Origin: an uncultured Gammaproteobacteria bacterium | Lineage (GTDB): Bacteria; Patescibacteriota; Microgenomatia; Daviesbacterales; UBA10151 | DNA: 11,948 bases | Assembly: GCA_964522265.1 (NCBI GenBank) | Contig: CAZFVS010000027.1 | Location: 1 to 11,948 of the forward strand | Reading direction: 5' to 3' | Shown: positions 4,658 through 5,407 of the stretch, piece by piece | Layout: the number at the start of each line of letters is the position of its first letter | How positions within the stretch are numbered: the first letter of the stretch is position 1 | Notes under the pieces: generated by a model | What the model was told of the DNA's origin: nothing | Databases searched by the model: none | Seen by the model: the letters and a program-made list of their open reading frames with translations, nothing else | Made by a program: the position numbers and the translations under genes

Positions 4658-5407
4658 CTACTTACAAAGAGCTAAACCAGAACCAACTTCATACAGTCCT
4701 GCATCATCCCCGCCATCAGCCAAAGCCTTATCTTGTCCTTCTTCCGATTCAAGTTTAGCATTTATTTCCCAGTTTTTGCCATCTGAACAATAGCTATAAT
4801 GGAATTTTTCACTGTTTGTGGGATCCAAAGGTAGTTCAGGTAGTTCTTTTAAACTCATTTTTAAAGCAATATTGTCTATATTTAATAAATCAACTTTTAT
4901 CCAACCGGATCCATCTAAAAGTTTTGAGGGATTTTTGTCTGAAGTCTCGATGCAGGGAGCTTTTGTTTTTCCACATAACTTGAGGGGAGCGGCTGATACT
5001 TGGCTAGCTATAACCAGAGCTTGATTAATTTGAGCAAGATCAAGTTGTCTCTGGGCATCCCTGCTTCTTTCTGCTAATTTGGGATTGCTTTCAACTATTT
5101 TTTCTCCTATTTTCTTAGCTGTTTCAGGATTTTTTATAGCTTTATAAGTTGTAAAACCTACTAAAACTGCAAAGAAAATACCTATAATAGCCAAGACCAA
5201 CGGGACGGTTAGAAGAATTTTTAACCATTTAGGCCATTTCGTCCAGACATAAGTTAAAATTAAACCGATGGGGTAGGCAAAAATTAATAAGAGGATTGTT
5301 ATAATAGTTTTTGAGTCTTCTGATAAACCATCTTTCTGGGGCTGAGGTTGAGGTTGAAATGGGATATCGGTTTGAGGAGGATTAGGTGTTGCTGGAATAT
5401 TTTCCAT
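4658..5407 (-). CDS. type IV pilin/pseudopilin-like globular domain protein with a non-canonical N-terminus (P/Q-rich tail plus 2 TM, no GFTLIE leader)
   Basis: 249 aa. The C-terminal roughly 135 aa carry pilin-like signatures: ERSRDAQRQLDLAQINQAL (alpha1-C-like), LPLDPTN, YSYCSDGKNWEINAKLES, DGGDDAGLYEVGSGLALCK, with Cys pairs placed like a pilin D-region disulfide. The N-terminus is MENIPATPNPPQTDIPFQPQPQPQ followed by two hydrophobic helices. Confidence 0.8.
   Translation of the reverse strand: MENIPATPNPPQTDIPFQPQPQPQKDGLSEDSKTIITILLLIFAYPIGLILTYVWTKWPKWLKILLTVPLVLAIIGIFFAVLVGFTTYKAIKNPETAKKIGEKIVESNPKLAERSRDAQRQLDLAQINQALVIASQVSAAPLKLCGKTKAPCIETSDKNPSKLLDGSGWIKVDLLNIDNIALKMSLKELPELPLDPTNSEKFHYSYCSDGKNWEINAKLESEEGQDKALADGGDDAGLYEVGSGLALCK

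Follow-up and report, generated by a model that had tools for sequence, protein, structure and literature searches.

The 11,948 bp stretch of DNA analysed here (hereafter the window; 38% GC) comes from an uncultured bacterium of the Patescibacteriota or candidate phyla radiation (CPR), and carries on its minus strand, at 4658..5407, a complete open reading frame (ORF) for a protein of 249 amino acids (aa) plus a stop codon. This gene, the query of our analysis, is flanked in the window by genes for membrane-anchored PsbP-like paralogues, a PepSY protein, an M16 peptidase, a polytopic membrane protein without a domain call and a bPH_2 protein. The product begins with a tail rich in P and Q, continues through two hydrophobic helices and a long helix, and ends in a globular domain that contains cysteines; an earlier, sequence-only reading, which gave no strand for the gene, had taken this arrangement for a pilin-like head without a prepilin leader, fused to a two-helix anchor. 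The ORF starts at a single ATG with an in-frame stop 11 codons upstream, and is not a chance product because it has homologues, which match at E = 5e-30 and better. Our analysis indicates that the protein is probably a membrane-retained, non-polymerising paralogue of the type IV pilins of CPR bacteria (Microgenomates group), i.e. a pilin head on an anchor of two transmembrane helices (2-TM).

The N-terminal tail (residues 1-33; 5309..5407, minus) is P/Q-rich, net acidic, of low complexity and predicted to be disordered, and ends in a conserved SED(S/T)K motif; in the family such tails are P/S/T/Q/N-rich, 6-151 aa long and contain 6.7% K+R vs 10% D+E. It is followed by TM1 (residues 34-56, TIITILLLIFAYPIGLILTYVWT; 5240..5308, minus), by a short cationic loop (residues 57-63, KWPKWLK; 5219..5239, minus), which is predicted to be cytoplasmic and in which W58, P59, W61 and K63 are invariant, and by TM2 (residues 64-86; 5150..5218, minus). 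A helical insertion of 15 aa (residues 95-109, ETAKKIGEKIVESNP; 5081..5125, minus), which lies between two 'NP' kinks and is found only in the query in alignment A1, precedes the alpha1-C helix (residues 110-137; 4997..5080, minus). This helix carries an R-D-A-x-R-x-x-D-L signature, in which D117 is invariant and R120 and L124 are conserved in at least 90% of the family. The globular pilin head (residues 138-249; 4661..4996, minus) contains four short strands, two short helices and the conserved motifs GSGW, LPxDP, YxYC, WEI..LES and DGGDD..YEVG. All of the strings cited in the sequence-only reading are present where it placed them, i.e. the tail (MENIPATPNPPQTDIPFQPQPQPQ, residues 1-24), the two TM helices (TIITILLLIFAYPIGLILTYVW, 34-55; LKILLTVPLVLAIIGIFFAVLVGF, 62-85) and the motifs of the stalk and head (RDAQRQLDLAQINQAL, 116-131; LPLDPTN, 192-198; YSYCSDGKNWEINAKLES, 204-221; DGGDDAGLYEVG, 231-242), and Kyte-Doolittle hydropathy agrees, with two hydrophobic peaks at 34-56 and 62-86. 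The terminal Cys pair that it described is in fact part of a set of four cysteines (C145, C152, C207 and C248), of which C145 and C207 are near-universal in the family (126 and 118 of the 127 aligned members) and C152 and C248 are confined to the close subfamily.

When the query alone was compared with Pfam, NCBIfam and the sequences of the PDB, only sub-threshold noise driven by the TM helices was obtained. A search of 5.8 billion proteins returned 14 relatives, several of which start with a class III signal (e.g. P0004, MKKSAQVHKGFTLVELLVVIAIIAILAAVVVLIINPIELTRRGRDAARLSDL...); between these signal-bearing relatives and the query the alignment starts at the 'NP' junction and runs as far as the C-terminus, at 43-48% identity (A1). 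A head-only profile (A4), built without alpha1-N, matched 348 proteins from Daviesbacteria, the Microgenomates group, Uhrbacteria and Parcubacteria, nearly all of them with PF07963 and named either 'prepilin-type N-terminal cleavage/methylation domain-containing protein' or 'type II secretion system protein'. The Pfam N_methyl domain (prepilin N-methylation motif) was found in 106 of the 127 aligned family members; no other Pfam family covered the head in any of the 127, and the head-only profile was likewise without a PDB or Pfam match. The curated cut-off of TIGR02532 was passed by P0007, P0016 and P0024; the query and its relative P0023 gave no match to this model at all.

The gene context of the relatives was decisive. 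P0024, which shares 47% identity with the query head over 139 aa (E = 3e-35), is encoded in a closed Daviesbacteria genome (CP066688.1) in the order PilB-PilT-PilC-P0024-PilD, followed by four N_methyl minor pilins and then by PilM and PilO. P0016 also sits in the pilC-pilD slot, and P0034 and P0122 are placed in other type IV pilus (T4P) clusters; thus all four of the canonical relatives inspected are in T4P clusters. Because these relatives sit in T4P operons, the C-terminal head of the query can be assigned, by homology and context, to that of bona fide CPR type IV pilins, and the pilins which share it are probably major pilins. The earlier identification of a pilin-like head is therefore supported by the operon-borne relatives and by the head-profile matches. 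With the CPR pilins encoded between pilC and pilD (P0024 and P0016) the query shares the INP..E..R.RDA.R..DL motif, the head (43-47% identity), the four-Cys pattern of the close subfamily and the length of the helix before 'NP'. The canonical pilins differ from it in having a basic leader, Gly(-1), Phe1, Glu5, a score above the TIGR02532 cut-off and a place in a T4P operon, whereas the query, which is not part of any T4P cluster, has an acidic tail, TM1, a W/K loop and Thr where they have Glu5.

The class III signal is absent from the query. Neither PF07963 nor TIGR02532 matched the protein even at E <= 1, no G-[F..]-x-x-x-E (G|F-T-L-x-E type) motif occurs in any of the six frames of the window, and Gly(-1), Phe1 and Glu5 are all missing, the residue before TM2 being Lys63. 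Internal start codons occur only at residues 70, 72, 184, 194 and 229, and none of them yields a prepilin leader. Two predictions made from the sequence alone, that the class III site and Glu5 were lacking and that no internal start would restore a canonical leader, were thus confirmed. Since the signal and Glu5 were looked for and found to be absent, the query does not belong to the class III pilins, although it is derived from that family. A third prediction, that alpha1-N was missing, needs to be modified: the leader and the first ~9 residues of alpha1-N have been replaced, but the segment is not simply absent, as TM2 occupies its place. In A1, TM2 falls on the alpha1-N of the canonical proteins with Thr67 in the Glu5 column, a column which is E in 143 of 144 canonical members and never acidic in 57 module proteins. 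The distance from Gly(-1) to 'NP' is 25 residues in 144 of 145 canonical members; the corresponding distance in the 2-TM proteins, counted from where the loop motif ends, is 24-28 residues. In close relatives TM2 keeps IIAILAA.VVLIINP, and the C-terminal half of alpha1-N is nearly verbatim in P0023 (...IIPIIAILAATVVLIINPLELTRRSRDAARLTDL) compared with the canonical P0007 (...VIAIIAILAAVVVLIINPLELTRRSRDAARLTDL), a likeness which suggests that the swap took out the leader and roughly the first nine residues of alpha1-N. From its length, its position and its 'NP' junction, TM2 would be the positional equivalent of alpha1-N and no more than that.

The segment that stands in place of the class III signal is itself conserved. 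Its consensus is ..S.DTKTIITVLLL.F.YP.G.I.MW.WTKWP.WVKIL.T., laid out as S-E-D-T-K, TM1 with a mid-helix [FY]-P-x-G..M-W, the loop W-x-K-W-P-x-W-x-K, TM2 and NP, and P46, G48, W58, W61 and K63 are invariant in alignments A2 and A6. No Pfam or NCBIfam model was found over this module, which is a conserved, so far undescribed 2-TM anchor of CPR bacteria. The possibility that TM1 (K-T-L-I-T-V-L-L-L-I-F) is a degenerate duplicate of alpha1-N (F-T-L-I-E-L-L...) was rejected by a hidden Markov model (HMM) of the canonical alpha1-N, on which TM1 did not differ from control TM helices (Mann-Whitney p = 0.82).

When 1.84 billion representatives were searched exhaustively by an HMM built from five 2-TM proteins, there were 3,456 matches at E <= 1e-3; among the best 150 of these, at least 22 clusters cover the module together with a head-like region and 9 cover the full DGGD-type head. 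A module-only profile (44 aa), which is too short, retrieved one fragment from the 5.8 billion proteins. By pattern, the module is present in 61 of the 275 retrieved proteins. The relatives of the query come from genomes of the Microgenomates group, including Levyibacteriota and Roizmanbacteria. Nearly all of the 61 module proteins continue with (I/V)NP..Q... past TM2, and about half of those that do so have a recognisable pilin alpha1-C signature; their heads vary, some being GspG-like (LVPEYL..IP.DP...Y.Y) and others short Cys-rich domains. The sequence-only reading had regarded the architecture as an unusual reuse of the fold and had suggested looking for it in other genomes. It recurs there, and the 2-TM pilin-head proteins are a recurrent, conserved CPR family and no singular oddity. 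At a Roizmanbacteria locus (L006, MGAO01000020.1) two module genes, 3333-3923(+) and 3925-4377(+), lie in tandem, one with a GspG-like head (LVPEYLAEIPTDP...YLYEV) and the other with a short Cys-rich domain, so that some genomes have more than one copy of the module.

The query head is also carried by anchors of other kinds. It was found on RDD-domain anchors (P0014, P0054, P0142, P0154, P0163, P0167, P0179 and P0271), on other polytopic or single-TM anchors, in tandem-head proteins and at the C-terminus of larger proteins. P0163 retains an alpha1-N remnant, IIAILAAVVVLIINPL, after its RDD domain. In P0008, P0018, P0157, P0159 and P0178 a plain signal-anchor is followed by two tandem pilin-like units, the second of which is of the query head type, and these proteins would represent another non-filament arrangement of the domain. 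A single clade of all non-prepilin heads, which would imply a single origin, was suggested by a neighbour-joining tree but was not supported on bootstrapping (0/100 exact splits, median Jaccard 0.68); judged from these trees, the head may have left the pilin context once or several times.

The module genes lie outside T4P operons. We probed the surroundings of the module genes by tblastn with Daviesbacteria PilB, PilT, PilC, PilD, PilM, PilO and a putative PilN, and obtained no homologue within 8-10 kb of any of them (window, L001-L010 and L016-L025; about a dozen module loci), so that within this range the search for a pilD/pilB/pilC locus proposed in the sequence-only reading came back negative. 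Gene context is not conserved among the relatives, save for an RDD-family gene and a polytopic gene (no Pfam match) beside P0025-type genes for 2-TM pilin-head proteins, from which they diverge, at three loci (L009 7967-9905(-), L002 6355-8767(-) and L003 7413-9840(-)); the RDD proteins of L002 and L003 bear TPR-like repeats.

We modelled the query protein with AlphaFold2 (AF2). The first model, from a 12-sequence alignment, was poor in the head (pLDDT 74) and its Foldseek search was uninformative. The model from the 127-sequence alignment had a mean pLDDT of 88, with ~97 over residues 190-249, and predicts a helical hairpin from which a long stalk with kinks leads to a compact head of the alpha/beta type. 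Helices are predicted at residues 30-56 (pLDDT ~90, spanning TM1), 60-92, 94-107 and 109-137, TM2 being continuous with the stalk; strands of the head are predicted at 152-155, 204-208, 213-217 and 239-242, together with the two short helices. The tail has no secondary structure in the model (pLDDT 54-65). The 15-residue insertion would lengthen the stalk and, if helical, raise the head by ~2 nm; its origin as a tandem duplication was rejected, as it left no signal in the DNA (score 7 vs a shuffle mean of 7.8).

A family profile that includes alpha1 matches solved pilins and GspG, the major pseudopilin of the type II secretion system (T2SS), through the helix only, with alpha1-C in register. 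The full-length family profile matched Escherichia coli K-12 GspG (b3328) with Prob 96.5% and E = 8.5e-10 in a collinear alignment, with SDL..L..AL in register and LPvDP on LPADP, but the significance of this match is due to alpha1 and not to the head, because the head-only hhalign comparison with E. coli GspG was not significant (Prob 0.8-2%). GspG, which resembles the query family in this collinear match, has a class III signal, whereas the query has none. A DG..DD-type loop near the C-terminus of the query is presumably comparable to the loop of GspG.

The charge distribution of the module suggests how it is placed in the membrane. On average across the family the loop between TM1 and TM2 contains 2.5 K+R and no D+E, and the stretch of 10 residues that leads into TM1 is net acidic; the positive-inside rule would thus place the loop in the cytoplasm and both termini outside. 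An external head is consistent with its conserved cysteines and with the enrichment of CPR bacteria in an MdbA-like extracytoplasmic disulfide oxidoreductase (PMC6744442). We propose that in the query the acidic tail, TM1 with its YPxG motif, the W/K loop and TM2 took the place of the class III signal and of the first part of alpha1-N, and that TM2 substitutes for alpha1-N, passing via the 'NP' kink into the stalk helix. The hairpin would insert with its cationic loop in the cytoplasm, and with the stalk and a disulfide-bonded head outside. From what is established on T4P assembly, the prepilin peptidase would be unable to cleave the query, because it has no Gly(-1) site, and the PilB/PilC machine would be unable to pull it into a filament, because it has no free Phe1 and no Glu5 and is tethered by TM1. 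The sequence-only reading had likewise expected a statically anchored protein that is neither processed nor polymerised, which is a reasonable expectation. The pilin head would then be permanently shown at the cell surface on a helical stalk that is 15 residues longer than in its relatives. By analogy with pili, its most likely role would be one of binding or recognition like that of the pilus head, e.g. in contact with a host cell or a surface, although this is much less certain than its retention in the membrane.

Several findings weigh against membrane retention of a true pilin head, or against parts of it. When the pLDDT-88 model was compared with the PDB by Foldseek, a comparison which had been suggested together with the original claim of a pilin fold, no significant match was obtained; the best pilins were 2ope_D (E = 7.4) and 6utu_A (E = 5.4), and the resemblance to the alpha-beta roll of solved pilins was not seen. 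Because there is no PDB structure or profile match, head-only GspG comparison included, the pilin fold of the query rests on homology to CPR pilins of unsolved structure. TM2, for its part, scores no better than control TM helices against the canonical alpha1-N HMM (Mann-Whitney p = 0.23), and the context of the query was read from one 12-kb contig. Finally, one member of the family (P0161) has an N-terminal zinc ribbon and some have N-tails of up to 151 aa, which would fit better with a cytoplasmic N-terminus, with a TM1 that is re-entrant at the invariant P-x-G, or with some other topology. With either a hairpin or a re-entrant TM1, we infer that the head would be outside and tethered.

The alternative that survives best is that the protein is a membrane-held accessory of the T4P machine, which docks by way of alpha1-C and the head on the filament base or on the assembly platform to anchor, prime, terminate or regulate the pilus, its 2-TM module contacting PilC or PilMNO. 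It would be a bacterial counterpart of FlaF/FlaG (ArlF/ArlG) of the archaellum, which combine a domain like that of the filament subunit with an N-terminal helix, lack a class III signal and are held in the membrane (PMC4425475). The query shares with them the subunit-like domain behind an N-terminal helix without a class III signal, its head belongs to one family with pilins that occupy the major-pilin slot, and TM1 and the loop are far more conserved than a passive anchor would require. However, FlaF is monotopic and has a beta-sandwich domain of archaellin type, its gene is part of the archaellum operon, and it binds to the S-layer; proteins of the FlaF/FlaG kind are also required for filament assembly. 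The bacterial query, in contrast, combines a module of two helices with a small predicted alpha/beta head and is not operon-linked. Unlike the operon-borne FlaF/FlaG, the module is never encoded with T4P genes in the loci inspected and its gene context is not conserved; it also carries unrelated small Cys-rich and other C-terminal domains, and the occurrence of the head on RDD and other anchors suits generic display better. We therefore consider an accessory role unlikely. In a more specific form of it, the module would be a dedicated converter that locks pilin subunits in the membrane and makes them partners of the pilus machine, docking through alpha1-C and the head at the pilus base or on PilC/PilMNO to anchor, cap or gate; we regard this as improbable, but if true the converter module would be a bacterial functional analogue of FlaF/FlaG, so far unrecognised in any bacterial T4P system.

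It is very doubtful that the protein is a pilin which still polymerises after another protease has cut between the loop and TM2 and freed TM2 as a new alpha1-N. TM2 does have the length and junction of alpha1-N, and the boundary between loop and TM2 (W-x-K | I-L-L-T) is strongly conserved, but position -1 holds neither Gly nor Ala, the never-acidic Glu5 column of the module proteins and the failure of TIGR02532 and PF07963 to match speak against it, and no candidate protease is linked to the gene in any context inspected. We give similarly little credence to an inverted topology, in which two full TM spans would leave the N-terminus and the head in the cytoplasm and the loop outside, an intracellular reuse of the head. 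The zinc ribbon of P0161, the small helical N-domains of P0175 and P0240 and the long tails favour a cytoplasmic N-terminus; set against them are a strongly cationic loop with zero acidic residues, the conserved cysteines of a head that is homologous to extracellular pilin heads and the Cys-rich nature of other C-terminal domains on the module, and with a re-entrant TM1 (with its turn at the conserved YPxG) the N-terminus could be cytoplasmic and the head still external. An artefact, i.e. a decaying pilin gene, a wrong start or a chimera of an unrelated 2-TM ORF with a pilin fragment, might be suspected of a single 12-kb contig of a metagenome-assembled genome whose query protein forms a one-member cluster and, alone among the proteins looked up, had no exact contig record, but is effectively refuted by the recurrence of the architecture across independent samples and lineages (L002-L006, L016-L018 and P0132-P0138), the invariant residues of the module, the one clean ORF without a leader-giving internal start and a base composition that is uniform across the gene.

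We searched the literature and met with no report, for CPR or for other bacteria, of a pilin head on an anchor that is not of the class III type. The CPR 'Pam' pilus was considered as a relative and rejected, as the preprint on it describes Ig-like donor-strand pilins.

Five genes for surface proteins in the window (3260-3913(-), 3913-4593(-), 5466-6230(+), 6230-7678(+) and 9002-9670(+)) encode N-termini that resemble class III signals, in which a basic stretch leads to a Gly and a hydrophobic residue, often with Pro at position +3, before a hydrophobic run and GG (e.g. RQAG|FAPIWIILLLFLFGG, KSAG|FVASPPLII, NQRG|ILPLFLL, EAG|VFPILFLVV and KKQAG|ALNLFLTL). Glu5 is present in none of the five, and none of these N-termini has a Pfam N_methyl match. 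A KGF(A/T/I)P...GG start is also found on larger proteins that end in a head of the query type (P0274, P0261, P0247, P0245 and P0200), and the N-terminus of 3260-3913 matches that of P0274 (E = 2.6e-4). A published account of Sulfolobus sugar-binding proteins (the bindosome) describes class III signals on them, another case in which pilin signal and pilin head are uncoupled and the outcome is a surface protein (PMC3047682), and by analogy the five neighbours could be Glu5-less substrates of the prepilin peptidase. The bindosome is the converse of the query, with a pilin-type signal on a non-pilin domain instead of a pilin head on a non-pilin anchor.

Three of these genes (3913-4593(-), 5466-6230(+) and 6230-7678(+)) encode PsbP-like proteins with a membrane anchor (PF01789/PF18933, E down to 3e-9), which have expanded locally. 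They are paralogous (5466-6230 vs 6230-7678, E = 4e-23), and the 482-aa protein holds two PsbP-like repeats. A fusion of the head or module to PsbP-like domains was rejected, since there was one sub-threshold PsbP_2 match (P0009, 19.4 bits vs a cut-off of 27) and BLAST gave no similarity between ectodomains. The other two, 3260-3913(-) and 9002-9670(+), encode anchored proteins without a Pfam domain, which form a paralogous pair (27% identity over 193 aa, E = 3e-11) with two cysteines conserved in both. At 7616-8216, the lowest-GC part of the window (~0.33), two ORFs overlap on opposite strands (198 aa minus, 186 aa plus), the plus-strand product looking like a polytopic membrane protein. The ORF at 9890-11035(+), between the surface-protein cluster and the bPH_2 gene (11077-11622), encodes 381 aa with no TM helix and no Pfam match above threshold. 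Upstream of the query gene, 22-51 nt from its ATG, lies a sigma-70-like -35/-10 pair (TTGACT, 18 nt spacer, AATAAT; 5429..5458, minus); such sites are no commoner in the region than expected from shuffled sequence, and the pair is weak evidence.

CPR/Patescibacteria are described as living attached to other cells, with T4P as the best-supported attachment device in these accounts (PMC6744442; PMC9894109, PMC11623550). The existence of a conserved fixed-anchor family, together with the occurrence of the same head on RDD and other anchors, suggests that the pilin head is used as a general surface-binding module and not only as a building block of filaments. For annotation this is a warning, as 'pilin-like' heads in CPR genomes do not in themselves imply pilus subunits, and the unannotated, strongly conserved 2-TM module merits a family definition of its own. 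The module family would also provide a natural experiment on which pilin features (Gly(-1), Phe1, Glu5 and a single TM helix) are needed for extraction into a filament, and the query protein is a candidate for close-range adhesion after the pilus has been retracted.

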